DNA of 36,114 nt from Raillietiella orientalis (lineage: Eukaryota): contig JAYWIR010000188.1 in assembly GCA_036172245.1 (NCBI GenBank), positions 1 to 36,114 of the forward strand. The letters run 5' to 3'. Position 1 is the stretch's first letter; each line of letters starts with the position of its first letter. Of this stretch, positions 12,550-36,114 are shown one piece after another. A model generated the notes under the pieces. It made no database searches, was not told the origin of the DNA, and was given only the letters and a program-made list of their open reading frames with translations. The position numbers were made by a program, and so were the translations under genes.

Positions 12550-12647
12550 TTTAATTTTCGCCTTCATGGGAGACGGATGTGGATTCGTGTTGCTCCGTTG
12601 ATCCGCTGTTTAATTGTGCTTGTGCGTCCCACTGCCTAGTCCTGAGG

Positions 12648-13730
12648 ATGAGCAGTGAACAACGCAACGTGGAAGTTGTCGAGCCAGTGGTTCAGGAATT
12701 TCCCACTGCGGGAACGATGGCGACAACCTGTGCGAGCCCCGCGACACCGGCCAGGAGCTTCGCGGACCTGGCTGCATCTGCAGCCGTACAAGGACGCCTC
12801 CTCGAGCAGGCGGAGTTGCAGGCATATGTAGCCCAGGGCTACAAACCTACTCTCCGCTATAATGTAAGTGGGGTAGGCAAGGCTGGAGAAGAGTTCGCGG
12901 GCGAACTTTTCCGTGTGGGAGTGCGAGAGGAGGACCTCATAGCACTCATGCCTGTTCCAGCATTGGGCTATGTAAAGGTCCGATGCAAGCAGGCTGCCCT
13001 TGTGCAGCGGCTCCTCCGCACTCCTTTGTTCATCCGCGGGAAGAAAATATTTTTCACCGCGATGGACGAGTCTTTTGTCGTTGTTCTCTCGGACATCGAA
13101 ACGGAGATCAACGACAAACAACTGATCACTCACGCGGTGTGGAGGAAGAGGAGTTCCTACAAGAAGTTTCCTCCTGTCCACACTGGATTTGCTTCCATTA
13201 GAATGACCGTCCCTAACCTTCGCACACTGCCTGCTACTCTACAGGTCAACGGCACGGTCGTTCACCTGTGGATCGCAGGTAAGGTTCCCACGTGTGGGCA
13301 ATGCGGCAGGGAAGTGCATCGAAGAAAACAATGCCCTTTCGCGAAGTGCCGCTATTTCAAGGAGCCCAGGAACGATCCCAGGCAGTGGCCGGATATTGAA
13401 ACAAGAAGGAGAAGGCTAGATTTCGACGCGCGAAGGGGAGCGCAGGGGAGAAAACAGAAGCCCTTTAAAAACAGATGAACACGCGAAAGCTCGCGTAAAC
13501 CCGGTCCGGTGGCCCCTCAAGCGGCTTCCTCTGCTGCGAAGCCCCGAAAGGGCAATCGCTCTGCCGGGAAGCCAGTTAAGAAAGGGCGCGGGGGCCCTTT
13601 CTTAACTGACACCTCTGCCGAATGCGGAGTTTACGCTCCCGGAAAGGGGTCTAGGAAGCCGTTTGCACCGTGTGATAGCGTGGAAGTTGGTGATGAGGAT
13701 CTGGATAACGTGCGAACCGTATGCACAGAT
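12648..13730 (+). pseudogene. ORF1-like gene of another non-LTR subfamily, frameshifted and truncated
   Basis: SFADLAAS...QGYKPTLRYNV...REEDL...LVQRLLRTPL resembles family L ORF1. Degenerate knuckle CGQCGREVHRRKQC. Starts about 100 nt after the preceding element's tail. Confidence 0.7.
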
Positions 13731-15120
13731 GCGAGTCAGGATTTGCTCTTGCTGTAGCGCGTCCGGCTCCTGGCCGACCTCCTCCACAACCTTCACCAAG
13801 TCCTGGCTGTGCTGCAGGACCTCCGGCGTCGCCACGGTGAGTTCATTAACATTCATTTCGTCGTCTTATTCGGCGTTTTCCTTCTCTGTTGCCTTGTAAG
13901 AGGGTTCTTGTTCCTTCACGAGCAAGCTCTCCTTAACTCCTTTTGTGTGTTCAACGAAGCCGTCCGCCGAAACCGAAGCGGCCTCCTCCACCTTTCTCTG
14001 ATTCTTCGCCTGCCTTAGGCTTTGTCACCTTCGCCGAAACCTTCTCCCGCACGGGGGAGTCCATGCATCGTACGCCAGTAGGCGTACTCGGGACAACACC
14101 ACCTCGCATGCCCCGGCTCCTTACAAAAGACGCGCACCTCGGGTATGTCACAGCTGCTAACCTGGTGTCCCTGCTTGTCGCAGCGGAAGCACCGAGACCT
14201 AGGGCACGTGCTCACCCGATGACCGAAATGCTTGCACCTGGTGCCGAACTTCGTCTGCGGGCGATACTTCACCAATACTTCCTGGGAGTTCCCAGCAATA
14301 TGATTAGCCCCCGGAATCTGCACCTCCTCGAACAGCTTAATTTTGGCAACCACATCGCCTGAAAACACGTTTTGGAGAAGTTCCGGAATTCTACTTTCAA
14401 AACCTCTCCGTATTTGGCGACGAACGCCCGCACCGCCTGCCTACTGGTGGTCCCGTAGACACCACCGAGAAATATCGTAGTATACGGCATATCTCGGATG
14501 CCTCGTACTATCCTGCCTTGGATGTTTATGCCCTCCTCGATCAGGGCCTCCTTCAGTTGTTTACAATCTGTGAAGGTTGTGAACCCGCTCATGCTTGGAA
14601 TTATGGCTTGTACTGTGTCAAAGTTGACATTTGCCTGGTATAGGGCCAGGTACACTTCCCTAATGTTGTGGATTCTGATCAGTCCTGTTTTAAAGGTGAT
14701 CGGCTTGACATTCGAGCCCATCTTAATGATGGGCTCGTCAGTGTTCTCAATTTTGTCCGTCACGGGCTTGCTAAACCTCAGGGCCGGTCGGATGGTCGCC
14801 GTCCCCGCCACCACAGCCTCATAGGAAAACGCTCGCCGCCCCACGGTCGCAGCCGCACAAGATGGCATGGCGTGCGTAGCGACGGGTAGGCCTATTGGCC
14901 CGCTTGTCGCTCCGGCGACCGTTGTCGCCGGGGACGCCGCCGCCCCCGCACCACAACATTCGCCTGACGCTACCTCCAGGGCTGGGGTAGCTCCGGCCTC
15001 TCCGCCATCGCAGCGGCCTGCTGCTGCATCCTAGCGGCGGGCACTGCCATCGCCGCTGCTGGTGCTGTCGAGAGTCCTCAGCCACACTGCACAGCACTGC
15101 TTCTACCTTTAGATTACGAC
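13728..15120 (-). mobile_element. Family S element, ORF1 remnant, 3'-truncated
   Basis: IREVYLALYQANVNFDTVQAIIP, FSGDVVAKIKL and CKHFGHRVSTC/CFRCDKQGH are homologous to the ORF1 at 30111. Confidence 0.85.
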
Positions 15121-15214
15121 TTGCTCTAAGAGGGCACTCACAAAAATTAGGAAAACGCTCTTTTCGACGCTCCTGGTGTCACCCGAAAGGCGTGAAAAAG
15201 GCGAAAGAAATGCG
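15121..15214 (-). pseudogene. U5: 5'-truncated, altered U5 snRNA copy
   Basis: Minus strand reads CGCATTTCTTTCGCCTTTT...GGAGCGTCGAAAAGAGCGTTTTCCTAATTTTTGTGAGTGCCCTCTTAGAGCAA. It matches the U5 at 24835-24718 from about nt 28 onward and shares about 23 nt of 3' flank. Confidence 0.85.
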
Positions 15215-15215
15215 G

Positions 15216-18200
15216 TTTTTCCCAAATCCCACAAGGGGTGGGGTAATTTATTTAACATCCATACTACAATCACATTCACGCAATCGAAACTTTTTGTTCC
15301 GCACTTGTGAGTTCATTCCACTATCAATTGGGGAGTCACTCGGGGAAGACCACGTTGGATTTGCAGTTTGGAGGACTACGTGTGGGTTTGGGCTTGAGCA
15401 ATACTTACTATCCCGCAAAGGATGTACTTGTACGGCCAGGCTTATACTTTCCCGCAGTTCCTGATTCCAATTTCCTTCTGGACGAGTCCTTGGAGGATGT
15501 CCATGGGATGTGCTGCTGTTCGGGTTTTCGCCATCTTCCACCATCGGATCAGGATGGCTTTGATGGACAAAGCAATGGTTATCCTAGCCATCGGGTTGTA
15601 CAGAGGTACATTGGCGTTCCCTTGAAACATCCGAGCTAGGACTTCCGTGGTGGTGACGTCAGGTAGTCCTATGACCCTTTTCAGGGTCTCCCAGTCCCGG
15701 TGGATTGCGGGACAGGTTAGGGCGTGGAGTCTTGTTTCCCAATCGCCACACGCCTTGCATTTCCCGTCTTCCACGTTTCCCGTGATGTGGTAGATCCTGT
15801 AACCACTCTGAATTCCTTCTTGATAAAACATCAGGAGCTCGTCCTGAGCGTTCGGCGGTAGGTCACTCCTCCATAGTGTTGTGCCAATCGCCAACAGATT
15901 GATCCTCAGACTTCCGTGGCGATCGGCAGCTTCATGGAGGGCACTGATGTCCTGATTGTCGTCTTTAATCATCCTGCGGAGGTTTTTCCTATCCACCCTG
16001 GACCACGCTGAGTTGCTGTGGTTTTTCCACACCTCGCGGGTCCTGTGAGTGAATTTTCCCAGCACCATCTCGATATACCGAAGTATACGAGAATGGCGAA
16101 GGTTTCCTCCTCTTCTCCATTCCTGGATTTTCTTCAGGGTAACTCTGGGCCGCTGGCGGATCCAGCTTCTTGTGTCAGGAGGCACGCGAAGCATTCTAGG
16201 GATCACCAGGATGGATTCCTCCTGCCAGAGTTCCCTGCTTCGTGGCACAATCTTCAGCTGGTGTTTTTGTACCAACTGCTGTTTCCTCTTCAAGGTGGGA
16301 TCGATCGTGTTCCAATCTCCTGCTTGACCTAGCAGCGCAGTCATTGGGCCCTTCGAGTTGTTCAATGACAACGAATAGGCCCTGTGCGCCGCATACGGCC
16401 AGTCATTTCAATGAGCGGCGATCTCCAGGATTTGTCGCTTATCATGATATCCACAGAATGTGCAAGCGACTTCATCCTGGTCCCACCTTCCTCATTGAAA
16501 CGACACAGTGGTTTGAGTCTTACTCTTGGTCTGTAACTACCCCATAGTACTTTTCGTTGCAACTTTTCTACTTCTCTGCGGGTTTTCCTGTACATTCTGC
16601 TAAAGGCCGCCCCGAAGAGGATCTTCGGAAGGATTACTCCATTCCACAGGTTGGCCTTCTGCTTCATGCTGAAGTCCGTCCGCGTGTACTTCGTCGCTTC
16701 TTCTGCTGAGTTTCCCAGGATTTCGGTCCATAGCAGCTTCGCCGTGGAGTCGTCGCCAATGTGGATTCCGAGGTACTTGGCGCAGTCCACCGTTCGGAAT
16801 CCTTCCTCCGTTAGTGGGGAGAGATCCAGGATTCCGACGGGCAGAAGTTGACTGTTCTGGGCATTGATTTTTAGCCCAAATCCTTTTTCCATCATCTCCA
16901 CCACATCCAGGAACGCATACTAATCTCGTTCCTCCTTGATAAAGAAGAGAAGATCATCCGCGTAAGCCAGATGGGTGAGCTTCTGGTCGTCCATCTTGAT
17001 TCCTCGTAGGCGTCCACTTCTTTCGATGAATGATGTCAGAGCTTCCATGTAGATAACAAACAGCATCGGAATTAGCGAGTCGCCCTGGCGGACTCCTCGT
17101 TCCATGCTGATAGCTGCTGTTTCTGCTCCGTTGATCTTGATACGAAAGTGTTGATGAGCAAGTAACATCCTCACGAAGTTGCTGAAGTGCTCCGGGAGGT
17201 CCAGTTTTCCCAGAATCTCCGGCAGTATCCCATGGTCGATGGTATCGAAGGCCTTCTCCATGTCTGTGAACACCAGCACCAGGTTCTCGCCGACGTATCG
17301 GCTGAGTCCCACGGTGGCCTGGGCACACTTGACATTGTCCGACATGTGGCGTCCAGGCACCGCACATGTCTGGACTGGAGAGATTAGCTTCGGCATGATC
17401 TTGGCTAAGTGGTTGGCCCAGATCTTCGCCAACCACTTGGCGTTGGAGCTGAGGATTGAGATTGACCCCCATTGGAAAACCTTGGTTAGGTCTCCGCCCT
17501 TCGGCAGCAATCTCATCCTGCTCTCGTAGAAGGACGTTGGTAGTCTGTCTTCTTGCCGGATGCATAGGGTCAGCTGGTGGAACAGGCGCAGGTAGGCGTG
17601 CAGGTACCGCTGGTAGTGAGAGATGGGAACACCATCAGGACCTGCCAACACGTCCTTGAGAAGTTGCGAAAACGCAGCTTCACCTCTTCTTCGAAGAAAT
17701 CCTCTTCCAAAATCTTCCGCTGGCATTCATCTATCTTATTCTCCAAGTAGCCTAGAAAAGCATTTTGTGTCGCCGGGCACAGGTGCTGGTGCCGGAAGTG
17801 TCCCGTGTAGTGCGTCTGGAAGGTTTCCACGATCTCCTCCGACGTGCGCTGACTGTGGCCGTCGTACTGGATGCAGAAGATGTCTGTTGCCAGATTCTTC
17901 TTCTCCAGCACGCCGACTTCCCCTTTGATGTTTGTGAAGACGTACCGTCTCTCGTTCTCTTCCCAGTACTTTGAGAGGGAGTGATCTTCGGCTTTCTGCT
18001 CCCAGAACGCTTCTTGCCTCAGTCGCTTGTCTCCGTACTGCATGTTACAGAACAGATGGACTTGATGTTTCAGGCTGTCCCATTCGGCGACCCTTCGGAT
18101 GATGCTGGTACTCAGGAACGTCTCGATCAGTTCTTGATGACTGGGAAACGTCCCGAACCAGGCGGACATGCAGATGAGCGCCGCCCCTGTGTTCTGCTTC

Positions 18201-20619
18201 CTCCGAGGATTTTCCGTTCTTAAGGAGAACCGCACCAACGGGTGATCGGACAGTGAGGTGGGCGTGTCGCGAAAATCTTCGATGCGGTTCTCGAGCTCTG
18301 TGCTGTGTAGGACGTGGTCGATCGGCTTGTGGCCAGCTGTTCGCCACAAAAGTCCGAACTCGTCTGACAACCGCCGATACGACGTCCTTTCTCTGGCGCC
18401 CCGGGTGTGGATGATCTCCATGATGTTCAGATCGCCGGGGACGATCACTTCGTCCTTGGGTGCGACCTACTGCCGGAGTGCTGCATGCAGCGCTTCCGCG
18501 CACTGATGTTTTTGCGTGTGTGTTCCGTACGCGCTTACCAAGAATATGTGAACAGTAGCGGACCACGCTAGTCGTACACCGATGATTGGTCCGGCATGGG
18601 ACAGAAGACTTCCGGGACTGTAGGGGCCAGGTCTTTGTTCACCAGCACCGCCACTCCTTCAGTGTTCCTCTGTCCTTCGCTGACGAACATTTGCATGTTA
18701 AGGCATCGTTCCATTTCCAGGCTGATCTGATGACCCAACTTGTGGGTCTCTTGCAAACACGATGTCTTCATGTGCGATCTTGCGCGCGATTCTTTTCCTT
18801 TTCCTCTGGTCGATCAGTCCATTAACGTTCCAGGAGGCGATGTTGAGCCTCCTGGCGGTGAACAGCGACGAGGCCAATGAGGGGTTCATTTCTCTTTTCT
18901 GAGCTTCTTCTGTAGGGGAGACCGTTGCAGTCTCTCCTACGAAGAAGCGGACTTCTCACTCCCGGCATCGCTCTCCGTGCCGGTGGGATCTGTCAAATCT
19001 GGTTCCTTGATTGAACGGTCGATTTTGGCGACCGCCTTGCGCGGAAGTGTCTCCTCGTCGACGTCCGCACAGTACGCCGCCTTCAGTTCGAAAAGCTTCG
19101 TCTCCAGCTTTTCGCGTTCTGACACGGTCACCATTCTGTTGATGTCCTATTGGACCTCGCAGATGCGAGCCAGGATTCGTTCCTGCTGCACCGCAGTTGA
19201 CTCATGTTGGACCTCCTTCACATACTGAACCACCTCCTCGGTTATCTGCAGAGCCTCCTGCGACACCTGGGGATGATCAGCCACCTGCATTTTTTCGCCT
19301 TTCTCTGCTTTTTCTGCCTCATCGACCTTCTGGGAGGGTTCTTGCTCCTTCACGAGCAACCTCCTCTTGCCACCCTTTCTGACCTTAACAAAGCCGTCTG
19401 CCGACGCCGGCGCGGCCTCCCTTGCCTTCTTCAGCCTCTCCACAAGTTTTGGAGGTTTCGCTACCTCCGCCAGCACCTTCTCCCGCACGGGGGAGAGTCC
19501 ACGCATCGTTCGTTAATTGGAGAACTCGGAGCAACTCCACTTGGCAGCCACTTGGCCCGGGCTCCTTGCAAAAGAAATACGCCTCGGGCATGTCGCAGTT
19601 GCGTACCCAGTGTCCCTGATTCCCACAGCGGAAGCCTCTGGATCTCGGACAGGCACTAACCCAGTGGCCAAAATTCTTGCACCCTGTGCAGAAAACTGGC
19701 TGCTCTCTATATCAGATGGAGACCTCCTGGGAGTTCCCATCAATCTAGGCGACTACTGGAATCTGCACTTCCTCTGCAAACTTTTCCTTCGCCACCACCT
19801 CTCCCGAGAAAATATTTCCGGAGAAATTCCGGAATTCCACCTCCAGAACCTCCCCGTACCTCTCCAGTAACTCCCACACTGCGTCCTTGCAGGTGGTTCC
19901 ACAAACGCCGTCAAGATACACCGTGATGTACGGCATCTCACCGATACCCCGGATCACCCTTTCTTGGAAATTCATGCCCTTTTTGATAAGGGCCTCGCGC
20001 AGTTGTTCACAATCGATAAAGATTGTGAAGCCTGACATGTTCGGTATGATGAACTGTACCGTGTCAAAGTTCACATTGGCGCGGTAAAGGGCCAGGTACA
20101 CTTCGCGGATGTTGTTCATCTTTACGAGGCCCGTCTTCAAAGTGACGGGCTTCACGTTCGGGCCAGTCTTGATAATGGACTCCTTCATGCGTTCTATTTT
20201 TCCTGTCACGGGCTTGCCAAAACTTTGGGCCGGTCGGGTCGTCGCCGTTCCCGCCGCCAACGCCGCATATAAAAACGGGGCCTTCGCCGCCGCCGTCGAA
20301 GCAGGCTGCCCCACGGTCGCAGCCACCGAGCAAGATGGCGTCGCGTCACCAGCAACGGGCAGGCCTACGGGCCTTCCTGTCGCTCCGGCGACCGCCGGTG
20401 CCGCGCCAGAACAATCTCGAAGTCCTACCTCCATGGGCTGGGGTGGCGCCACCGTCTTCTCCGCTGCCTGCTGCTTCTTCATCCTCGCGCCTGCAGACGC
20501 TACCGCTGGGGACGATCGCAAGGTTTACACCTTGGACTCCCTGGCGCTGTTGCTGCTGCTGCAGGTGGTGGGGGTCCTTGGCTGAGTACTCACTGTCACT
20601 GTCTTTGCCACTTGGGTGT
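15216..20619 (-). mobile_element. Full-length but inactivated family S Tx1-like element (ORF1 plus APE-RT-CCHC ORF2)
   Basis: ORF1 pieces span 20521-18937. ORF2 pieces carry WNVNGL, QETH, GDLN, IDHV/SDH, DMEKAFD, GVRQGDSL, YADD, KYLG and CKACGDWETRLHALTC, collinear with 31679-35206. The 3' end is AATAAA-TTACCCCACCCCTTGTGGGATTTGGG-AAAAA (15252-15216). Confidence 0.93.
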
Positions 20620-20760
20620 TGCCCTCTCGGGGCCCTCAAAAATTGCAGCGGCTGTTAGGTTAGTCACTGCCTTGGCGGGGTATTGGGTATAGTTTTCAAC
20701 TAACAATAATCGCGACTCAATTACGTTCAGCAGCGGCGAAATTGCCCGTGAGCAAGAGCC
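20620..20760 (-). ncRNA. U4: U4 spliceosomal snRNA gene or pseudogene, apparently full length
   Basis: Minus strand reads GGCTCTTGCTCACGGGCAATTTCG...GCGATTATTGTTAGTTGAAAACTATACCCAATACCCCGCC..., then Sm site AATTTTTGA and 3' hairpin GCCC-CGAGA-GGGC. The core matches the conserved U4 GCGATTATTGCTAATTGAAAACTTTTCCCAATACCCCGCC. Confidence 0.92.
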
Positions 20761-20782
20761 TCGTGATAATCATATCAAAATC

Positions 20783-23700: not shown

Positions 23701-24717
23701 TGGTGCTCCCTCCTGGGATTTCACCAGTGCAACTGGAACCTCAACAGGGGGTAGCCCGAGAAGTCGGGGAGACCAACTACGTCTACGGGCTCCCGGAGCC
23801 CCCTGGATGCGGTTTGCGACGGCCCGTGAGTGCGGGATGTAGTCGATGTGTGTGAAGCTCGAACCTATCCACGCGATGTCGAGTGCTTCCGCCACGTGGC
23901 AGTGAATGCTGAACGTCTAAGGCAAGCCGCCGGTTGAGGTTAATGTTGAGGTCGCCCATCTCAGCAGGATGAGACGTCCTTCGGTGCCGCCTTGCTCTTG
24001 AGAAGAGTTCCCAAGACCAGCGAGAAGGCTTCCCTCTTCTCATGAAGCCGTATACCTTCACCGCAAGGACGACTTCCAGGATGGCCACCACCTCGCGGTT
24101 GGGCTCTCCCTGGCTGACGTCGATGGTCGCTCGCAGGTGCTGCGCCCACGTGGTGTCGCTGCCTGTTCCGCCAGACAGGTGGACGGTCGTCCCCACGATC
24201 TCGGAGATGCCGTGGACTACAACCGTCTTTCGGTTGAGGAGAAGCCCATTGTCGAGATCGTCGATCACCTCCGAACTGTCCGTGTAGATGGAGAATCCCA
24301 CGACGAACGGCATGATCTCCTTGATACACTGAAAATCAATTCCTTTGCTGTCGATCCCGAGGTAGATCTCCCTCAATGCTCTGTCCGTCCGCGTCCTGTT
24401 CGTCATTACAAAGGTGACCGAGGTCACGTCCGGGCCGAAATTGCTTAGGAACCGGAACCCCTTTCGATTTGTCAGCAGACGATGCAGCCGCGTACGTGCA
24501 CCAATGCCCTCGTCGGCGAAGACGCGGATGCGGTCACGTGCGACAATGCCACGGGTGCCTTGCTGTCGTCGTCGTCGCACGCGAAACTTCCATCCGTCCG
24601 CAGGCCGCATCCGTACTCCCCACCGTCTCCACGACTACCGGTCTCCGCAGGGACACGCAACCGGAACACCATGCGTCCGCAGTTCAGACAACACAGCTTC
24701 TGCCTTTAGATTACGAC
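20783..24717 (-). mobile_element. Heavily degenerate family S element
   Basis: ORF1 remnant LREIYLGIDSKGIDFQCIKEIMPFVVGFSIYT, RT remnant NHLAYADDLLF and C-terminal AIGTVLWRSELPPEIRDCLLVFHGGIL. The 3' motif GCCCCACCGCACGTCGGACT lies at 20808-20789. Confidence 0.85.
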
Positions 24718-24835
24718 TTGCCCTAACAGGGCACTCAAAAAATTCGGAAAACGCTCTTTTCGACGCTCCCGCCCACGGATTTCTTTAGTAAAAGGCGAAA
24801 GAAATGCGCGCTTAGAGCGGGAGCCCGAGCACGTT
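24718..24835 (-). ncRNA. U5: U5 spliceosomal snRNA gene, apparently full length (about 118 nt)
   Basis: Invariant loop 1 in TTTCTTTC-GCCTTTTAC-TAAAGAAAT, stems GCTCCCGCT/GGCGGGAGC and GCTC/GAGC, Sm site AATTTTTTGAG, and 3' hairpin TGCCCT-GTT-AGGGCA. Confidence 0.95.
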
Positions 24836-26049
24836 CCGATTGCATCCGATGTTGGCCTGAAAGTACAGTTAAGGTCCCCACGTAGTGGCGTTGAAGTCAG
24901 TTTAGAGCTGATACTTTTGGAAAACAAAATCACTCATTTTCTATGTTTAGAAGGTTTCGCTTTCGAAGATAAAGAAAAGGAAGCTCAGTTTCATCTGCGA
25001 CAATTTCTGTCACGACATTGAGTGGATTCATAAGTAAATTTTCAAAAAGATCAAGTCTGCGCTGCCTGCCATCTATCTTACGATCCTTGCACCGAATTAG
25101 TGACAAGCATGACGAGAGCCTTCCAGCGCCGCGCTTTCAATATTTCCAAAGATCGTGCTTCTTCGAGGGTAAATATTTGACGATGACGTTTCCATTTGGA
25201 AAAGGCAAACCGCGATTCCTCAATGTTGCACCCATATTCGACCTTCGAGCTTTTGTTGACTGCAGTGCACCTTCGTCAAAGAGTCTGAAAGGAAAAGTCC
25301 CTAAGCAAAGCGCTCGCAAAGATGCAAAAGTTGCACCGGTGGTTACCATTTCCCTGCACTTTGAGGGGTGGCTCAACGATTCGAGGGTGACAGCGACGAG
25401 AGCATGACTGCAGTGCTGATGTACGGGCTCAACTCCCTGCGGCGAAATTTGCTGCAGACGGATTCAAGAAGCTTGTTCCGCGGTGTCAAAAGTGGGAAGT
25501 GACGGTGAGAACGGGCAAAAATGAGATGGGGATGCATGTGTGTAGAAACCACCACTAGTGCATTTTTGTTTCTCTGATTCGTTCTTCCTTTATATCCGGT
25601 TGGCCCTTACTTTGGACATGCGCCTCGTATAAACGGAACCTATAGGGAAGACGCTGCCAGCGTGGTCACGAGAGGAAACGAAAGATTCTTTTGGAAACCA
25701 CGGCTGCGCATGCGTTAGAATCTCCTAGATACCATTTGTGCGTCGATTCACCATTTAGGGGTCTGGATTGCGCTGGCTCCACGACACGCTTGCTCGATCC
25801 TGGTGCAAGTCTTTTGTCGGAAGAATGCGGAACGTGGTTCGCCCAAAATTACGGATCCACTAATCTCTCGAGCTAGACGTGCAGTGGCGTGACTTCACAC
25901 GTCCACAGCTTGCAGCAACACTTGCACATTCGTTTAAAACAGCATCTCGCACTGTTGTCCACCGTGATGGCTTCCTCTCGGTGTTCTGTCGTAACGCTGT
26001 TCTCTTGGGGATGGTGGACAGATGCTTCGGTGCTGCTTTGAGATCACCA

Positions 26050-28680
26050 GGCCATCTGCAGTTCCTGTAGGTAAGCATACGTAAGTGCTCATGCAGGCAT
26101 CCTTCGGCAGTTGAGGGTATCTTCAGCCGCTTTTACAAGGTCTTGTTCGACGGCATGTTTCTCCGCCTTCGCACCCGGATGCTGCTGATGAAGAAGGCAA
26201 AGATGGTTTCCAACATCGGGTTGTACGCCGGAACTTCCAACTCGGACATTCCCGTGGAAGATCACGCATTCAGGACGCCCTCTGGCAAAACGTTCTTCAT
26301 TCATCCACTGTCCAGTCGTTGGCCAGTGGCAGACAGATGAGGTAGCACGTGGAGTTTGGTTTCGCCACGCGCTTAGGAGCTTCATGCTGACTTCTCCTTG
26401 TGAGGTGTCGAAGCCGAGCACCGCACAAGAGATCTCCGGCGTAGGAAAGCAGGAAGCCATCTAGCGTGTTCGGTGGTGAGTCGGCTGTCCAGATCGCGGT
26501 GACCGCCGATCGCCCTGCAGATTTATCTGCGTCGTGAGGAAACGTCGGGTTCCCGCTGACAGTACGGGTCTCCCTTGCCGCGTCCGGTCTTCGCATCCTC
26601 TCTCTTCACTTGGCTCTCTGGAACACCATTCACTTCCTTTCCAAAGTTTTCCAGAGCTCCCTCGTCCCGCAGGCCACTCTGCGTCCCATTTTCGTGATCC
26701 ACTGGAAGAGCCACATCTGGTGGCGGTTTTCGCTGGTTGCGAGCGGTTCGGAATGCGCGCACGATCTTCAGATGGGGTCTCTGATGAATCACTGTTCCCT
26801 GCGGCAAATACACGAAGCGGAATATCTCCGGAGGCGATCTTTCGTCCCAGAGTCTCTTGGCTTATGGGCTCTATTTTCAGCTGGTGGATGCTGAGCAGCT
26901 GCATTTTCCGTGAATTCGAGGGGTCGACCGAATACCACTTGTCATCCTTGGTCACTGGGGCTACCATCATGCCTCCAGACTCTTACAGCACCTTGGCTCG
27001 GGCTATGCAAGCAGCGTAGGGACGCCCATCTCAAGATCTTAGCGGCTTCGATTAGTTGACGAGCGTCGGAGAGCTGGGCTTCCCACTCTGTCGGTTTCAT
27101 CCACACGCACGTACTCCGCCAAGTATCGCGGGAAGCACAGATTCTCCAGAATTCCGAGGAATACTCCCGTGGTCCACGGAGTGGAGCACCTTCACCATGT
27201 CGGTGAAGCCCAGCATGCGGTTGTCGCCGAGGTACCGACTCAAGCCGATCGTTGCCTGGGGCGCACTCGACGTTGTCAGGCATGCGCGTATCCGCGAGGC
27301 AGAATCGACGATGGAATTGCCTTTTCCATGTGGATGGCCCGGATCTTCGCCAGCCACTTGGGACGTCCGTGCTCAAGGTGGAGATTTGCCGCAACTGCGA
27401 TACTTTCGCAAGGCCCCCGTTTGTTGAGCAACAGCCTCATCATGCTTGCATGGGACGACGCTGGAGGCTACCGTCCTCTCCTGATCCCATTCGTCTGAGC
27501 TCGTGGAACGGACGGGGACAAACGTGTGGGTGCCGTCGAACGTGGCGCACGCACGCAACACCGTCACCTGCCGCCACGCCCTAGCGCAGTCCCGCCAACA
27601 AGCCCTTGATTTCCTTGACCGTTGATATCTTGCTCCGGGATATGCTGTGGTCTCGGCCAAGCCATCTCTGCGGATATCGGAGGGCGACTTGCAGCTACAT
27701 AAGGAGCAGAAAGGAAATGGAAGCGGGAGACGTCATGCTCTTGGAACGCCCCGCGGTACCTGCGGTGCCCTCCGACATGTACCAAAGCGCATTCTGGGAT
27801 TCCATGGAGAAGACGCCTGTGGAGACGTTCTTGCCCTCCATCAGGCCAGCGTCCCCATTCACGCGGTGGAAAACGTACCGTCACTCGTACTGATCCCAGT
27901 ACCGCGAGAATAAGCGGTCAAAATCGCGCGGACTCCATGCACAAACTCCTAGAAGCCGGTACAACAGCTCAGCTACAGGCGGTATCACACATGCACATCT
28001 TGCGAGGGCTCGCCGTGGGCGATGACACCTAGTATACGGGCATCAGAAAGAAGCTTGGAGCATGCTCCTGCAACTCCTGCAAAGACGTCTTCCATATGAC
28101 TGCGCAATGTAACCTGTTTGCAATCTCGTATAGGGAGAAAAACTCACACATTCTGAGGCGTTGTACAACGGCGTATCCCGGAAAAGTAGAACGCCGTAGT
28201 CGCTAGACCTCAAAGAACGCGAAATCGCTTCCCATTCAGCACCATACCACTCTCGATGAGTGTCTCTTGCAGCTCTGCGAACGAGGTATATAGCGAAAAC
28301 ACAATTGATGAAGATAGGATCGCCATTAATTTTTCAAAGTCCACATTTCGCTTGAGGAAAAAGACATACATGTCACGCAAATTGGAGGCACCTAACATCC
28401 CCATTAAAAAGGTGATATCAAAGTCAAAATTCATAAGAGATTTGTCCAACCGCTGTATTTCCAAACTTTCGGGCCTAGAAAACGCCACATTCCTAGCAAC
28501 TGGAATGGCAGCCGCCACTGCAGCATAAGATAGCGACAGCGTTGCCAGTAACGGCGTAGCTCCCACCTTGGAGGAGCGAATTTGGAAAAATAACATAAGC
28601 GTAGGGGTCGTCCTAGATCGTCCATCCACTGGTCGGTTGAAATTGACAACACTTCAGCTTCCGCAAATACAGGCGGAGTC
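26050..28680 (-). mobile_element. Very degenerate, internally deleted family S-like element
   Basis: ORF1 remnant SYAAVAA...NLRDMYVFFLKRNVDFEKLMAI (28629-28210) and RT remnant QATIGLSRYLGDNRMLGFTDMVK (27357-27097). C-terminal similarity continues to about 26090. The 3' boundary is uncertain. Confidence 0.75.
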
Positions 28681-28681
28681 C

Positions 28682-28741
28682 TTCACCCAAAAGGTGCAAA
28701 ACAAAAAATTCGCCATGGTATCGCTGCATTCAGGCAAGTAT
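28682..28741 (-). ncRNA. Candidate short U1-like Sm-site RNA, or internally deleted U1 relic
   Basis: Minus strand reads ATACTTGCCTG (U1 5' end with one mismatch), AATGCAGCGATACCATGGCG, AATTTTTTG (Sm-like), then a weak hairpin CACC-TTTTG-GGTG. It occupies the head position of a family S-like ORF1. Confidence 0.4.
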
Positions 28742-28819
28742 CCGGCATGCACAGAAATAAGAAGACGGAAATTATGGAGGGCAGCTTTCAGGTAAACATA
28801 AACGTGCTATTGTAAGACT

Positions 28820-29000
28820 CAATGCTTCCAACCGCGATTACTTTCTTTATCACAGCAATTCTGACACGAAGGACTGATATTCACAAATCCCGAAGAACAG
28901 CACTGCAAATCGAGATTTTTAAAAAAATTCGGACAGAATAAGATAAGGGTCACGAACTGATGTAATTATGGAAGTATAGCACATTGCGAATAAGATTACG
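28820..29000 (+). pseudogene. Old ORF2 C-terminal remnant related to family S
   Basis: MLPTAITFFITAILTRRTDIHKSRR aligns by eye with MVLTTLALFITAIVIRRAKMYTQRR of the intact ORF2. Confidence 0.6.
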
Positions 29001-29809
29001 ATAGGGAAAAGGACCAATGCACCGCACACCCTGCACCCAAACCAAAAGAATGCCTCCAGCCTGTATTCAACTGCAAACAACGCAGACACGACGATTTTGG
29101 CAACCTTAACCAAGGAACGGGTAAAGGAGCTACTCCCTCACGTAAGAGGCCGCCTGCAGGGAAAATGCAGGAGGACAGGAGGCGGAAACGACGAAAGGAA
29201 AGCGCCTGCATCGAAGACGTGAACGAGATGACAGCCGGAAGCAGTGCACAATTTCCAGAACCGGTGGTTAGCGACAAACGTTGACAAGCAGCAAGCGGAA
29301 ACACGATGAGAACAGTCCATCGAACCTACGACACGCGAAAGGAAGCTGGGCAGGAAAAGTAGACAAAGAGGCAAAACCAAACGAACAAGCTCTAAGGCGC
29401 ACACACCAACGGGAAGCACGCTTTGCAAACGCGGAAAACCGCGGCGAAACAACGCTGGGATCGACTGACGTCGGAAGCACGTGCGCAGCATACGGAGCGA
29501 CCAATCGCACAGCGGCAACGCCGCACACTCGCAGCAATGGGGCAACGAATAGTGCACAGAAAGCAAAAGAGAGGGAAGCAGAGATGTCAACAAGGCAAAC
29601 ATCAATCCGACTAAACTCTCGCCAAACCAAGGCAAAACAAAAAATAATACAAAAAATGTTTAGTACAAAAAAACAAGCACAGCCACAAAAATATCACAAA
29701 CACATGCCACAAATAACACATTGAAGAAATACTGCGCAGCAAAAAACATCCAGAAACTGCGTGAAACTCAACAGTAGAAACAATGCCAAATTCTAACATA
29801 TACAAAATC

Positions 29810-29972
29810 ATACTTACCTGGCTTCGAGGCGATCTTGGTCACCATGGAGATCCCTCCAGAGTGAGGCTCGATCATTGCACTGCGATTGGGCTGACCTCTG
29901 CGATAACCCCAAACGTGGGTTACTCGGAAGCATAATTTTTAGGCTGGGAGACTGCGTTCGCGCGGACTCCTG
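29810..29972 (+). ncRNA. U1: U1 spliceosomal snRNA gene, full length (about 163 nt)
   Basis: Begins ATACTTACCTGG. Stem I is GAGG-C-GATCT/AGATCCCTC. Stem II carries the U1A loop ATTGCAC (29874-29880). Sm site AATTTTTAG, terminal stem with a TTCG loop (CTGCG-TTCG-CGCGG). Confidence 0.97.
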
Positions 29973-30110
29973 CGAATTTCTTCAAAGTAAGTGGTTTTTT
30001 TCGAGTGCTGTGTGGAAAGTGGTGCCACAGAAAGGGACCGTGGACTTTGCCCTACCACCCAGTGTGCGGAGGAGGACGTTGCCCCACGGGATCGGCCCCA
30101 GTGGGGGAAA

Positions 30111-31672
30111 ATGGAGGCGGTGGACGTCTCCACATGTGCGAGGCCGGTAGAGGCGCTGGCGGCGAGATCGGCGGAAGGGCCGAACGCAGCGTGCGCGGGA
30201 GCGGCGTCCCCTGCAACGCTCGTTGCGACGCCCGTATCGATCCGCCCTGCGTCGTACGCGGCGGCAGCAGCGGCGGCGCCACCTGGAGGTTGGAATGCGG
30301 CGGCGGTGAAATCGGTCGGTTTTCCGGGAGTGCCTCCGGCAAAACCGAGGATCCCTGTCCAACCAACAAGGTACATCCTGGACGACGAGGATGAGCCTAT
30401 ACTCGTCCTGCCGGCAGATGTCAAGCCGGTAGTTTTTAACTGCGGTCCCCTTCGTTTGGCAAACGTGAAGGACATTTACATCGCCCTTCATCAGAAAAAC
30501 GTCGATATGGACGTAGTTCAGGCCATGATTCCGTGTGGGAACGGTTTCACCATTTACACGTCGTGCGATCCCCTCATCGAGGCACTTTGCGATCACGGCT
30601 TGACCATCAGTGGGAAGCTATTCCGTGGAGTAGGAGAAACCTCCACGACGACAGTGTACCTGAAAGGGGTTGACTTTCACACCAGCAAGAAAGTCATCAA
30701 GAACTTCCTGTCGCAGTACGGGGAAGTCCACCATCTGGAGATACGGAACCAGTTTGGTGAGATCTTCTCCGGAGAAGGATTTGCCAAGATGCGCCTGTAC
30801 GAAAATGCGCAGATGCCTGGCGTGGCTTACATCGACGCGTATTCGCAATCGGTGATGTTCAAATACAGGCAACAACCTGTATTTTGCGCAGGCTGCAAGA
30901 CGTTTGGGCACCGCATCGGAGCATGCCCTAGGGCTCAATGTCACCGATGCGGCCAGCGAGGCCACTTCTTCCGGGAGTGCAACCAGCCCATAAAGTGCTA
31001 CTTCTGCGGCTTGTCTGGTCATTCGAAGAAGGAATGCAGGCGATACGCCGCATGGAGGGACGCACAGGGGCTGCCACCATTAACGGTGGAACCGCAAGTG
31101 CAAACGGAAGAGGAGAAGAAGACTCCTTCGGCCGAGGTGACTGCCAGGAAGGCGGCAGAACTCACCGAAGGGAAAAGAAGCCCGCAAAGGGGAAGAGAAA
31201 GACAGCACCACAACCTTCTGTGGAAGCGCCGGCGGAAGAGGCCGAGCCAGCCAAGGAAGCGGTGGAAATACAAGCTGCAGAGTTGGCGGAAGTTGCCAAC
31301 GTAACAGCAGAAGTGCAAGAAGTCGCGAAAATCGTGCAGGAAGCAGTAACCAGAGAAGCGAAGGCAGAAGCTCTGGAACGCATCAGCCGGGTGGAGGCCT
31401 CCATCAACGAGCGCGTTCCAGACGCGGCCAAACGCTTCCAATTGGAAGAAAGGATGCTGGAAGTGAAACAGCGCTTCGCCAGAGGGGAGCTTGAGGATCT
31501 GCAATATGCAGTCCCTCGAAGCGTCCTTAATGAAACGAGGCACTCAATCGCAGACAGCACCGACTACGTCGGGTCAGAAAGCGACGTAGGAGATCAGCGA
31601 GACGCAAAGGGGGGGACGACAACGTCTCCCAAGAAGAAGAAGAGCAAGAGGAAGAGCAGGTCCTCCAACTAG
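30111..31672 (+). CDS. ORF1 nucleic-acid-binding protein (three CCHC knuckles), with one frameshift near 31173
   Basis: Knuckles CAGCKTFGHRIGAC, CHRCGQRGHFFREC and CYFCGLSGHSKKEC. The C-terminus continues in the 30938-31672 frame, which matches the paralog piece at 19506-19147. Confidence 0.88.
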
Positions 31673-31678
31673 TCCCCT

Positions 31679-34600
31679 ATGGCCACCTTCCTGTCGACTG
31701 TCAGGAGCATCAACATCACCTCCTGGAACGTGAATGGATTGTGGAACCCGGAGAAGAGACGGATGGTCACGCGGACCATCGAGCGTGACCACATCGTGTG
31801 CCTTCAGGAAACCCACGAGCTCGAACATCAGACCATCTTGGAGCTGGAACGACGACTGGACGCCCAGCTGTTCGTGAGCCCGGGCCAGAAAAGGACCAAA
31901 GGCGTGGCGATGCTCGTGAAGAACGAGATCGCACACACCATCCTGGAAACCTTTTCACCTTGGCCCGGCCGAATCGTCGGAGTGAGGATGTCCTGGTCCG
32001 GAAACGTTCACCTGTTCCTGGTGAACGTGTACGGGCCACACCGTGGAAAACATCGCTGCGCGGAGGCCGTGCAGTCTCTGCTTCGCAGCAAAGCTTCGGC
32101 AAAGGACATCGTGATCGTCGGGGGTGACTTCAACATGCTGGACAACATAACTCAGTCCAAGGATGCACGGGGAAGAACGGCGTATCGGCGGCTGTCGGAC
32201 GAGTTCGGACTGCAATGGCTGACCGCCAGCAGCAAGCCGATCGACCACGTCCTCTTCAGCGAAGACATCGCGAATCGTGTGCAAGGCTTCCGGGAGTCTC
32301 CATCCGTACTCTCGGATCATCCCCTGCTACGATTCACGCTGAAAACAGAGAACCCCCGAAGAAAGGAAGGCGCGCGGGCTGCATTAGTATGCATGCCCGC
32401 ATGGTTCCAGACGCATCCCTGTCACCAGGAATTGATCGAGGCGATCCTGCGCAGCACCACCATTCGCAGGGTCGCCGACTGGGACAGGTTGAAGCGAACC
32501 ATCCATCTGTTCAGTAATATGCAATACGGCGACAGGAAGATGAGGACGGAAGCGTACCGCGAGCTTGAACAGCAGCAAGATCGCTCGTTCTCGAAGTACT
32601 GGCCCCAGTACGAGAGCCGGTACGTCTTCAAGACGGTCAAAGGAGAAGTTGGAGTGCTGGAAAGGAGGAACATCGCCAGCGACGTTTTCTCCATCCGGCA
32701 CGCAGATGAAGTCAGGCACACGTCCGAAGGAATCGCGGAGGCGTTCCACCATCATTACGCCTCGCACTTCCGACGAAGACTTCTGTGCCCGACAGAACAA
32801 GAGAACATTCTGCGGTACCTGCATCCGCGTGTAAGGAAAGAACACCAGGAAAAAATGGAAGCCGAGATCTCCCCAGAGGAAATCAAGATCGCTTTCGCTG
32901 GACTGCGCAAGGATGTGGCGGCAGGTCCCGATAGTGTTCCCATCTCGCACTATCAGCGGTACCTGCACGCCTACCTTCGCTTGTTCCACGAACTGACAAA
33001 CGCCATCCAGGAAGAAGGAAGACTTCCAGCATCGTTCCACGAGGGAAGGATGAAACTGCTGCCGAAGGGAGGCGACCTGATGGAAGTCACCCAATGGCGG
33101 CCGATCACCATCCTGAACACGGATGCCAAGTGGCTGGCGAAGATCTGGGCCAACCGCTTAAGAATGGCGATGCCATCCGTCGTGTCTGCTACCCAGACAT
33201 GCGCGGTGCCCGGACGAAGCATGACTGCGAACGTGAAGTGCGCCCTGGCCACGATCGGTTATTGCCGATACGTGGGCGAAGACCTGGTGCTTGGGCTCAC
33301 GGATATGGAGAAGGCGTTCGACACCGTGGACCACTCGATGTTGCTGAAGATCTTGAGGAAACTGGGCTTCCCAAGCATCTTCATGCATTACCTGGAATGG
33401 ACCCTGGCGGAGCAAATCGTGAAGATCAGGATCAACGGACTTGAGACGGCAGCAATTCGGATGGAAAGGGGTGTCCGCCAAGGTGACGCCCTGAGCCCGA
33501 TGCTGTTCGTGCTGTACATGGAGGCGGTGTCCGCGATTATAGATCGGGGCAGCCGCCTCCAAGGAATAAAAATCGACAGCCAGCAGCTGACACACCTTGC
33601 GTATGCGGACGATCTGCTGTTCTTCCTGAAGGACGAACGTGATCAGGAAGCATTCCTAGGTGTTGTCAAGCAGATGGAAAATGGACTAGGACTCAAGATC
33701 AACTGCCAGAAGAGCCACCTGCTGCCAATCGGGATCATGGACCTCTCAGTACTTCAAGAGGCCGGATTCCGAGCGGCTGACACCGTCAAGTACCTGGGTA
33801 TCCGCCTCGGCGAAGAGACTGCGTCTCGCTGCCTGTGGCAGGAGATCCTGGGTAAGGTCACCGACGAAGCCACCAAGTACACCAGAGTCGACTTCAACAT
33901 GAAGCGGAGGACTGCCTTGTGGAACGGAGTGCTCCTTCCCAAGGTTCTCTACGGAGCAGCCTTCTGCCGAATGGACAAGAAAACGAAGGAAGAACTGGAA
34001 AGGCTACAAAGAAAGATCCTCTGGCGGGAGTATAGACCCAGGGTACGGCTGAAACTTCTGTGCCGCCCACGCGAACACGGTGGGACCGGGATGAAGCTGC
34101 TGCAACACTCCGTGGAATGCATGGATGCGCGGCAGCTCCTGGATCTCACCAGAAGTTGGGAAGACTGGCCCTATGCAGCGCACCGGGCGTACTCGAAGCT
34201 GTTGAACGGCTCGAGAGGCCTGATGTCAGCGCTCATAGGTGCCACAGGACACTGGATCAACATCGACCCTACGTGGAAGCGGAAGCAGGCACTGGTGAGA
34301 ACCCAAGGGTTCAAAATCGTGCCTCGCAGCTCCGAGATATGGGACGAAGAACTGGCCATGGTGATACCTCACTTGATCCCGATGCCAAGGGAGACGGTGA
34401 ACTGGTTGAACCAAAGGCCTAGATTGAACATCCGACGGTGCGAGCAGTTCGCTACCAGTGCCAGCCGGCACCAACTGCGACTGCATCGCCTGACCACGAC
34501 CTTGAGGGGTGGTTTCAATCATCGCACCCGGGAACTTTGGAAAGAGCAGCCGCAGGAGTCGTGGCTGCTGATGACCAAAGATAACATCAGGGTGGAAACG

Positions 34601-35206
34601 GCGCGAAAACACCAAGACCTGGATGCCCTCAACGCAGCCTCGTGCCGTTACGGCCCAGCACATGCCAATGTGGTGGCCGTCGGGGCTGCACTGATGAGGA
34701 GCGACCTACCTCCGGACACTCAGGACGACCTCCTGTTGTTCTTCAACGGAGGCATTCTGAGTGGATCCAGATTGCGGCACTGGACCGGGAGACAACAAGA
34801 TGGATTCTGCTTGGCGTGTGGGGAAGAGGAAACCCAACTCCACGTACTCACCTGCCCCACGCTGCGTCCGGACTGGAAGGCGGTAAAGGCGGTGACGTGC
34901 CTGCAGAGGAAGACTGCGATGCAGATCCTGTGGGGATTGTTTCAGGGGACAGGAGTGGTTCCCCTGTACAATCCGATGGTTTTGACGACGCTGGCCCTCT
35001 TCATCACAGCCATTGTGATAAGAAGGGCCAAGATGTACACACAGCGACGACAAGTGCCGGCTTGGGACATTCTCAGCGGCCTTGTTCGGAAGGAAATCGG
35101 GATTAGGAGTTGCGGAAGAATCGCCGCCTGGACGTACCGTTACATCTTGATGAAGATGGTCGAGTACTCCCAGGCACAAAGGACGATCCCACCCTCCGCC
35201 CCTTAA
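31679..35206 (+). CDS. ORF2 polyprotein: AP-like endonuclease, reverse transcriptase and C-terminal CCHC finger (1175 aa)
   Basis: APE motifs WNVNGL, LQETH, NVYGP, GDFN, IDHV and SDH. RT motifs WRPITILNTDAK, DMEKAFD, GVRQGDALSP, YADD and KYLG. Finger CLACGEEETQLHVLTC. Confidence 0.97.
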   Translation: MATFLSTVRSINITSWNVNGLWNPEKRRMVTRTIERDHIVCLQETHELEHQTILELERRLDAQLFVSPGQKRTKGVAMLVKNEIAHTILETFSPWPGRIVGVRMSWSGNVHLFLVNVYGPHRGKHRCAEAVQSLLRSKASAKDIVIVGGDFNMLDNITQSKDARGRTAYRRLSDEFGLQWLTASSKPIDHVLFSEDIANRVQGFRESPSVLSDHPLLRFTLKTENPRRKEGARAALVCMPAWFQTHPCHQELIEAILRSTTIRRVADWDRLKRTIHLFSNMQYGDRKMRTEAYRELEQQQDRSFSKYWPQYESRYVFKTVKGEVGVLERRNIASDVFSIRHADEVRHTSEGIAEAFHHHYASHFRRRLLCPTEQENILRYLHPRVRKEHQEKMEAEISPEEIKIAFAGLRKDVAAGPDSVPISHYQRYLHAYLRLFHELTNAIQEEGRLPASFHEGRMKLLPKGGDLMEVTQWRPITILNTDAKWLAKIWANRLRMAMPSVVSATQTCAVPGRSMTANVKCALATIGYCRYVGEDLVLGLTDMEKAFDTVDHSMLLKILRKLGFPSIFMHYLEWTLAEQIVKIRINGLETAAIRMERGVRQGDALSPMLFVLYMEAVSAIIDRGSRLQGIKIDSQQLTHLAYADDLLFFLKDERDQEAFLGVVKQMENGLGLKINCQKSHLLPIGIMDLSVLQEAGFRAADTVKYLGIRLGEETASRCLWQEILGKVTDEATKYTRVDFNMKRRTALWNGVLLPKVLYGAAFCRMDKKTKEELERLQRKILWREYRPRVRLKLLCRPREHGGTGMKLLQHSVECMDARQLLDLTRSWEDWPYAAHRAYSKLLNGSRGLMSALIGATGHWINIDPTWKRKQALVRTQGFKIVPRSSEIWDEELAMVIPHLIPMPRETVNWLNQRPRLNIRRCEQFATSASRHQLRLHRLTTTLRGGFNHRTRELWKEQPQESWLLMTKDNIRVETARKHQDLDALNAASCRYGPAHANVVAVGAALMRSDLPPDTQDDLLLFFNGGILSGSRLRHWTGRQQDGFCLACGEEETQLHVLTCPTLRPDWKAVKAVTCLQRKTAMQILWGLFQGTGVVPLYNPMVLTTLALFITAIVIRRAKMYTQRRQVPAWDILSGLVRKEIGIRSCGRIAAWTYRYILMKMVEYSQAQRTIPPSAP

Positions 35207-35324
35207 CCCTAGGAACACATACAGACCAATTGTGAAAGTGAAATGTATCACGGTCATACAGACATTAAAAGTTTTAATGAATGTGAATTAGGATGATTGG
35301 AGTGAAAGGAATTTTGTTGGTTGC

Positions 35325-35360
35325 AATAAATTCACCCCACCGCTTGTCGGACTTGGGGAC
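35325..35360 (+). terminator. Element 3' end: AATAAA plus hairpin CCCCA-CCG-CTTGT-CGG-ACT-TGGGG
   Basis: A related motif ends the family S copies at 15252-15216 and about 20816-20785. Confidence 0.7.
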
Positions 35361-35361
35361 A

Positions 35362-35502
35362 ATCTTGGTCACCATGGAGATCCCTCCAGAGTGAGGCTCG
35401 ATCATTGCACTGCGATTGGGCTGACCTCTGCGATAACCCCAAACGTGGGTTACTCGGAAGCATAATTTTTAGGCTGGGAGACTGCGTTCGCGCGGACTCC
35501 TG
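35362..35502 (+). pseudogene. U1: 5'-truncated U1 snRNA copy (nt 23 to end)
   Basis: Reads identical to 29832-29972 (offset 5530) and lacks the ATACTTACCTGG splice-site pairing end. Confidence 0.95.
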
Positions 35503-36114
35503 CGAATTTCTTCAAAGTAAGTGGTTTTTTTCGAGTGCTGTGTGGAAAGTGGTGCCACAGACCGTGGACTTTGCCCCACTACCCAGTGTGTGATGGAGGA
35601 CGTTGCCCACGGGATCGGCCCCAGTTGGAGTGGAAGCAGGAGGGCAGGGGGGACTGTCCTTCAGGCGGCGGTGGAGGCCGGTAGAGGCGCTGGCGGTGAC
35701 ATCGGCGAAGGGCTGAACGCAGCGTGCGCGGGAGCGGCGTCCCCTGCAACGCCTGCTGCCCGTATCGATCCGCCCCGCGTCGTACGCGGCGGCAGCAGCG
35801 GCGGCGCCACCCGCCGGGAATGCGGCGGCGGTGGAAATCGGTCGGCTCTTCGGGAGGCCTCCGGAGAAACTGAGATCCCTGTCCAACCAACAAGGTACAT
35901 CCTGGACGACGAGGATGAGCCTATACTCGTCCTGCCGGCAGATGTCAAGCCGGTAGTTTTTAACGGCGGTCCCCTTCGTTTGGCAAACGTGAAGGACATT
36001 TACATCGCCCTTCATCAGAAAAACGTCGATATGGACGTAGTTCAGGCCGTGATTCCGTGTGGGAACGGTTTCACCATTTACACGTCGTGCGATCCCCTCA
36101 TCGAGGCACTTTGC
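35503..36114 (+). mobile_element. 5' part of the next tandem family S copy (ORF1 with indels); runs off the window edge
   Basis: Identical to 29973-30031, indel-rich over about 35560-35880, then nearly identical to about 30350-30590. Confidence 0.93.

Follow-up and report, generated by a model that had tools for sequence, protein, structure and literature searches.

To our knowledge, long interspersed nuclear elements (LINEs) that home into multicopy RNA genes have always kept to one target sequence per family, and few of the targets in print are small nuclear RNAs (snRNAs). The locus we describe here holds six related LINEs interspersed with three snRNAs, U1, U4 and U5. It lies in a 36,114-nucleotide stretch (the window) that covers positions 1 to 36,114 of contig JAYWIR010000188.1, in assembly GCA_036172245.1 of Raillietiella orientalis. 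Other examples of elements with a taste for small genes are SLACS, CZAR, CRE and NeSL-1, which insert a few nucleotides into a small Sm-class RNA gene transcribed by RNA polymerase II (Pol II), in the orientation of the gene, and are expressed from the host promoter. They belong to lineages with a restriction-like endonuclease and a single target sequence, and we know of no duplication of the gene body in any of them. Ty3 and the TRE elements of Dictyostelium show position-specific integration at Pol III genes, the tRNA genes, by way of Pol III factors. The targets of SLACS/CZAR/CRE and NeSL-1, which are non-LTR elements (they have no long terminal repeats, LTRs), are the spliced-leader RNA genes (PMC8869645; here and below, a PMC number stands for passages of the paper).

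Array-forming LINEs with small RNA genes as their homing sites are a known kind, represented by Keno and Utopia for U2 and by a U5-associated Tx1 family. In the arrays of Phytophthora, where several Utopia families occur together, each element has an intact U2 upstream and, downstream, a U2 shortened by 38 nt; that the U2 fragment was duplicated is a possibility its describers do not dismiss (PMC4640811). The target of both Keno and Utopia is U2 nt 38/39. The U5-associated family appears in the legend of a Tx1 tree (PMC4494074).

How does our locus compare? As with Utopia, snRNA copies and elements of different families take turns along the arrays. In Utopia the element 3′ end is joined to a fixed internal position of the snRNA, and three of the five readable 3′ junctions here are internal as well, so that the snRNA behind the tail is shortened at its 5′ end, by 38 nt in Utopia and by 21-24 nt here. 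Upstream, in place of the 5′ stub that one would predict, stands an intact snRNA (PMC4640811). The differences lie in the elements and in the RNAs. A restriction-like endonuclease and one open reading frame (ORF) characterize Utopia, whereas the elements here have an apurinic/apyrimidinic endonuclease (APE) and two ORFs; Utopia is tied to U2 only, whereas we find U1, U4 and U5, and no Rfam match to U2 in the window.

In being APE-type, with two ORFs, at a small RNA gene, our elements resemble Keno and other target-specific LINEs of the Tx1 clade (PMC4494074, PMC4640811). Those insert at a fixed site in the gene; here, three of the five readable 3′ junctions fall at snRNA nt 22-25. The described families of the Keno kind have one target sequence each, unlike the three snRNAs here, and we see no single conserved target sequence of the sort that Keno and Utopia have: the three junction sites differ in sequence. 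Keno and its kin insert within the gene and, in the passages cited, no duplicated gene body is reported (PMC4494074, PMC4640811), whereas our locus suggests one. With the spliced-leader elements it has in common an apparent insertion near the start of a small Pol II RNA gene, in the orientation of the gene. If one lineage does enter U1, U4 and U5 at the same distance, the likeness to Ty3 and TRE would be a target that is a gene class set by the transcription machinery. An snRNA on the 5′ side of a LINE-mobilized unit is also a feature of snRNA-L1 chimeras and of SINEU, unlike our locus in that they join a mature snRNA to a truncated partner (PMC4494074); here there are a genomic 3′ flank, full-length elements and truncated snRNAs after the tails.

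The first-pass annotation of this DNA took the pattern to be perhaps undescribed. That holds in part. We found no LINE tied to several snRNA types in the full-text literature, a coverage that leaves out Repbase reports and subscription journals, but the succession of snRNA, element and truncated snRNA is already known for Utopia (PMC4640811). What we have not found in print, on the basis of one window and one contig, is a single clade that uses U1, U4 and U5 and joins them almost equally far from their 5′ ends. A second difference is internal evidence that suggests a long duplication by which the gene is preserved.

A clade of LINEs tied to three snRNAs

The result we regard as supported is that a clade of LINEs with APE and reverse transcriptase domains is tied to U1, U4 and U5, in the same orientation as the snRNAs and far beyond chance. 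We mapped the six elements by tblastn with ORF1 and ORF2 of the intact copy, E (Table 1). In reading order, the minus-strand elements are D, C, B and A, and those on the plus strand are E and F. The snRNAs were called with Rfam covariance models and accepted at or above the gathering threshold. Five of the six element 5′ ends come after a co-oriented snRNA, and in tblastn every snRNA is followed downstream, in its own orientation, by L1-like ORF1/ORF2 homology.

Much of this the first-pass annotation had seen: five copies, each starting directly after an snRNA 3′ end and co-oriented with it. The orientation is borne out by tblastn and all five snRNAs are confirmed (four by Rfam, one by BLAST), including U4 and U5, which the covariance models accept above threshold; the word "directly" has to go, as a type-specific flank intervenes at each junction. 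The U5 fragment it reported at 15121 is real. By BLAST, U5 nt 25-43 correspond to 15214-15196 at 100% identity, and nt 64-137 of a query made of U5 plus flank correspond to 15173-15099 at 93%. Its U1 fragment, ending at 35502, is likewise U1 (Rfam match 35340-35502, plus strand, 105.2 bits against a threshold of 69.5), with the amendment that the first 22 positions of the match are the tail of the upstream element E, which leaves U1 nt 23-163. The claim that fell was that of a sixth copy behind a U1-like candidate at 28682. That candidate (28683-28760, at the head of D) is rejected: an Rfam search of 251 nt gave no match at E<=10, and its local alignment to U1 (score 26) is at random level, shuffles reaching it 124 times in 2000 and random windows 441 times in 3000. 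Short-word BLAST found no further snRNA pieces in the window, including the neighborhood of a second LINE family at 1-13.7 kb.

Table 1. Elements, snRNAs and intervening segments of the locus, with positions in the window
Feature	Position	Strand	Evidence
Element A, 5′ untranslated region (UTR) and ORF1 only, cut off at 13726	13726-15090	-	tblastn
U5 without nt 1-24, middle replaced, plus 30-nt 3′ flank, directly after B tail	15091-15214	-	BLAST
Element B, with preceding U4 3′ flank (AAAGACAG at +15)	15212-20620	-	tblastn, tail motif
Full-length U4 snRNA	20621-20759	-	Rfam RF00015, 63.1 bits (threshold 46)
29-nt spacer, from C tail motif to full-length U4	20760-20788	-	
Element C, degenerate, shortened; tail motif 20789-20807	20789-24684	-	tblastn pieces, tblastx, motif
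U5 3′ flank, AAAGGCAG at +11; common to U5-fragment flank 15091-15120	24685-24717	-	
Full-length U5 snRNA	24718-24832	-	Rfam RF00020, 81 bits (threshold 40)
Element D, degenerate; diverged tail motif 25868-25886	25868-28682	-	tblastn
Full-length U1 snRNA, head of plus-strand array	29810-29972	+	Rfam RF00003, 132.9 bits (threshold 69.5), model 1-166
U1 3′ flank, 57 nt, 3′-box-like word AAAGTAAG at +12	29973-30029	+	
Element E, full length	30030-35361	+	5′ boundary inferred from identity break 30029/30030
U1 nt 23-163 (without nt 1-22), directly after E tail	35362-35502	+	Part of Rfam U1 match
Second copy of 57-nt U1 3′ flank	35503-35559	+	Identity to first copy
Element F, 5′ part only, continues past window end	35560-36114	+	tblastn, identity profile against E

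E is the promoter-proximal element of its array, with both ORFs intact. The ORF1 frame (29991-31304, first ATG at 30111) has three CX2CX4HX4C (CCHC) knuckles. ORF2 (31679-35206) is intact at 1175 aa and has an APE endonuclease (PF03372, E 8.9e-19, residues 15-214; L1 endonuclease structures match at about 1e-5), a reverse transcriptase (PF00078, E 2.2e-30, with YADD at residue 642) and a C-terminal Cys-His motif, CX2CX8HX4C, at residue 1044; Pfam zinc-knuckle matches in E are below the Pfam cut-offs. The best solved relative is human L1 ORF2p, at 8e-57, against 6e-24 or weaker for R2 proteins, and the nearest database proteins are 26-27% identical and have no clade label. These domains and motifs mark APE-type non-LTR retrotransposons of the L1/Tx1 group, with Tx1 itself as a candidate clade. 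In B, ORF1 runs from 20470 to 19490 and ORF2, spread over three frames, from 18877 to 15388, with the tail motif at 15225-15243.

The first-pass annotation spoke of one family. A related clade with U1, U4 and U5 it appears to be; "one family" is too strong, and the copies are deeply diverged lineages. Outside the E-F pair, amino acid identity by tblastx over the aligned parts can be summarized as about 31-51% or as about 41-51%, and blastn gives 66-69% nucleotide identity where the copies can be aligned at all. E and F are 79% identical by tblastx and 98.9% identical at the nucleotide level in the ORF1 core (the tblastn match of E ORF1 to F, 35521-36114, has 63% identity). A and B are each other's closest relatives in the window by both blastn and tblastx. 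The six nevertheless form a group when set against the second LINE family: in tblastx, C and D score 426-704 bits to B and E, and the second family 64-229 bits.

The flanks between snRNA and element, 20-57 nt in all, go with the snRNA type: both U1 copies have one version and both U5 copies another. They are about 57 nt long after U1 and about 33 nt after U5, with no defined end after U4. Mature snRNAs, being products of 3′ processing, have no 3′ flank. At +11 to +15 past the snRNA end stands AAAGNNAG, in all five copies and hence in three independent snRNA types; the word occurs 21 times in 72228 positions in the whole window. Human Pol II snRNA genes have a 3′ box, an AARRYAGA-type word shortly past the coding end (PMC5493778), and our flanks match this consensus, which is human and may not be that of the host, at 8/8 positions for U5, 7/8 for U4 and 5/8 for U1, at +12 to +16. 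A type-specific flank with a 3′-box-like word argues that the heads are snRNA genes with genomic flank, not mature snRNAs. All five elements so headed begin upstream of ORF1.

The flanks have another curious feature. Hexamers resembling a 5′ splice site (GTAAGT, GTGAGT) occur in the 3′ flanks of U1 (29985-29993) and of U4 (20587-20594, minus strand). The one behind U1 is complementary to the U1 5′ end, and a CAG lies exactly at the boundary 30029/30030, so a mini-intron in a read-through transcript is possible.

At the other end, E, B and C close with a conserved tail motif preceded by an AATAAA-like word (in E, AATAAA and motif together occupy 35335-35353). The motif has three matches in the window at up to three mismatches, against 0.06 expected by shuffling, and all three are at element 3′ ends. 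U1 from nt 23 follows the tail of E and U5 from nt 25 that of B; behind the tail of D, nothing is recognizable and nothing matches Rfam. One more 3′ junction comes from the only public sequencing run with part of the locus in it, which we call X1 and which is available in contig form. X1 is probably DNA ("DNA?"), with a share of words of 0.27, and may be from another organism than the window, 15 of the 155 aligned contigs being at least 99% alike to it; its junctions are taken from among the contigs listed. One listed contig joins a B-like tail, preserved to its last letters, to U4 without nt 1-21; 17 letters separate the two alignments, and the first of these are U4 nt 22-29. Another joins the same U4 region to the end of B ORF2, with the letters between them unread. 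The three tails set against an snRNA without its first 21-24 nt are thus those of E (U1 22/23), B (U5 24/25) and the B-like copy in X1 (U4 21/22); C, with its 29 nt and full-length U4, and D, with no snRNA, make up the five.

In the truncated U5 behind B, unrelated sequence (15174-15195, minus strand) replaces the invariant loop, and so, to judge by its letters, this copy cannot work as a U5. Just behind the tail motif of D (25810-25860, minus strand) there are an Sm-site-like AATTTTGG, what may be a short stem, and the word AAAAGAC; the segment, which no Rfam family matches, could be the last remnant of an snRNA.

Two ideas about the tail motif did not survive. As an snRNA promoter element (proximal sequence element, PSE) for the next unit, it is kept only at low odds, random windows being as similar: upstream of the U1 of E, the U5 of C and the head of D, tail likeness lies at background fractions of 0.06-0.99 (in a second comparison, 109-2835 of 3000 random windows score as high as these regions), and a positional k-mer search found nothing in common. 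As an RNA hairpin, it can be folded in both E and B, and visual inspection shows one compensatory pair, but at energies no better than those of shuffles (z -0.08 and -0.91). A degenerate form of the motif had 0 matches in metagenome contigs.

A duplicated U1 and a possible way to home without harm

The clearest clue to mechanism surrounds E. U1 nt 23-163 with its 57-nt flank is present on both sides, and the two copies (the second at 35362-35559) are identical at 198 of 198 positions. Immediately past this block, E and F fall to 76% identity over the next 109 alignment columns, rising farther in to 86%, 89% and 98.9%. Such a drop at 30029/30030 is as expected at the edge of a long target-site duplication, and we infer that the sharp edge marks the 5′ ends of the elements. 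The region beyond it (E 30030-30260 against F 35560-35790) has 76-86% identity, with indels frequent across the 5′ UTR and where ORF1 begins, and is hypervariable or recombinant.

Our first-pass annotation had taken the snRNAs for heads or promoters of the elements and proposed that the elements may multiply them. An snRNA does stand upstream of five of the six, but snRNAs are also the 3′ flanks of tails, and nothing shows captured heads. Because element tails adjoin snRNAs without their first 21-24 nt, the snRNAs look like remnants and duplicates of target genes on both sides of the elements. Multiplication holds only in a weak sense and only within the window, where two of the five copies are 5′-truncated.

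We suggest that Pol II snRNA genes are the homing sites of these APE-type, L1/Tx1-like LINEs, which enter near +22 to +28, that the gene upstream stays intact thanks to a long duplication of the target, and that repeated insertions build the arrays. On this account as a whole we are evenly divided. Reverse transcription would be primed at a bottom-strand nick 21-28 nt into the snRNA gene (in U1, between nt 22 and 23), and the top strand would break a little beyond the 3′ box (in U1, 57 nt after the end of the snRNA). The snRNA body and flank would thereby be duplicated as a long target-site duplication, of 198 bp for U1. The predicted product reads promoter, intact snRNA, 3′ box, element, 5′-truncated snRNA, 3′ box. 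As the intact gene and its target site would survive upstream, the same gene could be hit again, older copies would be shifted downstream, and head-to-tail arrays with truncated snRNAs between the elements would grow. A second insertion into the surviving intact U1 would give exactly U1, E, truncated U1, F. In human cells, Pol II runs on for a few hundred bp beyond the 3′ box (PMC5493778). Since the element would lie in this read-through zone, it is probably transcribed from the snRNA promoter, a step that is predicted.

The account would solve the puzzle that Utopia poses, an intact snRNA upstream of the element. If true, it would also show how an element with a specific target can live on in an essential gene family of low copy number and leave the genes undestroyed.

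Several observations weigh against it. Simple duplication fits E only. Upstream of B is U4 but downstream of it U5; C has U5 upstream and, downstream, a full-length U4 behind 29 nt; and D has no recognizable snRNA on either side by Rfam or by alignment to U1. These cases need extra events: a U5 gene may have received a read-through transcript with C, U4 and B, arrays may have recombined, or the mobile RNA may carry an snRNA head. The junction sites in U1, U5 and U4 have no sequence in common and no recognition rule is evident. Identity at 198 of 198 positions is not decisive alone, as gene conversion between U1 copies could look the same, and the ORF1 core of E and F is itself 98.9% identical. 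C looks more decayed than B, though the model makes upstream copies the younger ones. Then there is X1, in which summed word depth is about 360 over the reverse transcriptase core (peaking at that of B) and 1-6 in the bins that bear snRNAs. Many family copies in X1 may lack snRNA neighbors, a reading confounded by 5′ truncation, divergence and the 80% likeness threshold. Finally, our comparison set consists of the window and the X1 contigs, with no empty target site, native snRNA gene or RNA among them.

The depth of about 360 over the reverse transcriptase core means that the family is abundant in X1. Over window positions 14801-34800, word depth in ORF1 is 0.2-8, and most of the copies in X1 are probably 5′-truncated or diverged.

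Cargo, separate lineages or rearrangement

The snRNAs might be cargo rather than target. On this view, the mobile RNA includes an snRNA and the flank 3′ of it as a 5′ head, gained by read-through from an snRNA promoter, and new copies, often 5′-truncated within the head, insert behind earlier tails or are joined by template jumps. The mixed brackets that trouble homing by duplication (U4, B, U5 fragment; U5, C, U4) come naturally here, and so does the U5 with about 33 nt that A and C have in common, although blastn cannot align the two elsewhere. The junction between B-like tail and U4 has a depth of 12-26 in the X1 contigs listed, against 3-5 for contigs identical to unique parts, which suggests that the junction itself was amplified, and SINEU is a precedent for propagated snRNA-derived heads (PMC4494074). 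What makes us judge cargo unlikely, if worth keeping in mind, is first that random 5′ truncation would not arrive at nt 22-25 in three unrelated snRNAs. Head type, moreover, does not track relatedness: A, headed by U5, is nearest to B, headed by U4, and not to C, headed by U5. The fall from 198/198 to 76% at 30029/30030 argues that the U1 block has a history other than that of the E and F 5′ UTRs. And a carried head would come without a promoter, since those of snRNAs are external (PMC4494074).

Alternatively, several sequence-specific lineages could each own one snRNA, as Keno and Utopia own U2, and recombination or a chance clustering of snRNA genes could have mixed them. This has the rule of single-target families behind it, with U2, U5 and 5S all listed in the Tx1 tree legend (PMC4494074), as well as the deep divergence of the lineages here (41-51% at the amino acid level) and the fact that E and F both go with U1. 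We nevertheless hold it to be improbable, as the closest relatives, A and B, carry different heads (U5 and U4), and as a B-type tail adjoins U5 in the window and U4 in the X1 contig, the tail being the same to its last letters. Because of this change of partner, one contig favors a single lineage that accepts several snRNAs over an snRNA of its own for each lineage.

A third possibility does away with targeting: local rearrangement, segmental duplication or unequal crossing-over in a repeat-rich region with an snRNA cluster. The whole window is repeat-rich, and we have one locus only. Against this stand at least four independent 5′ junctions of the same geometry (U1 with E/F, U5 with A, U5 with C, U4 with B), three independent 3′ junctions of the same geometry between elements that are only 41-51% identical in amino acids, and a further junction from an X1 contig that differs from the window, and we think rearrangement alone very improbable. 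To chimeric retrocopies of the U6-L1 type, in which reverse transcriptase switches from LINE RNA to a mature snRNA, we give next to no credence: snRNA-L1 chimeras are documented (cited in PMC4494074) and snRNA and element are co-oriented here, but instead of a mature snRNA 3′ end fused directly to a truncated copy we see 30-57 nt of genomic flank with a 3′-box-like word in five of five cases, elements that are full length at the junction with no variable truncation points, and truncated snRNAs on the 3′ side of tails.

Possible recognition of a gene class

Homing by duplication can be taken further. An L1-like clade might recognize Pol II snRNA genes as a class and not by sequence, priming 21-28 nt past the start of U1, U4 and U5 alike under the guidance of the transcription or 3′-processing machinery. 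The second break, past the 3′ box, would duplicate the gene body and leave a targetable gene, whose promoter and read-through would drive the element, and the array would grow from the promoter end. We find this doubtful as it stands. If related elements, or one lineage, do enter U1, U4 and U5 at the same distance, they would be a Pol II snRNA counterpart of class-level targeting at Pol III genes, and if the class-level reading is true, the homing mechanism would be a gene-preserving one.

Surroundings of the arrays

Between the diverging arrays lies an AT-rich stretch of about 1 kb (28761-29809) with a GC content of 0.47 and a strong plus-strand excess of A, unlike the GC-rich elements. It may be the native upstream region of U1. 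The rest of the window (1-13700) is taken up by the second, distinct LINE family, which has an ORF1 with CCHC knuckles and reverse transcriptase fragments and is present in both orientations, nested and broken. Within one of these reverse transcriptase fragments is a perfect 276-bp tandem duplication, 1922-2197 and 2198-2473 being 100% identical.

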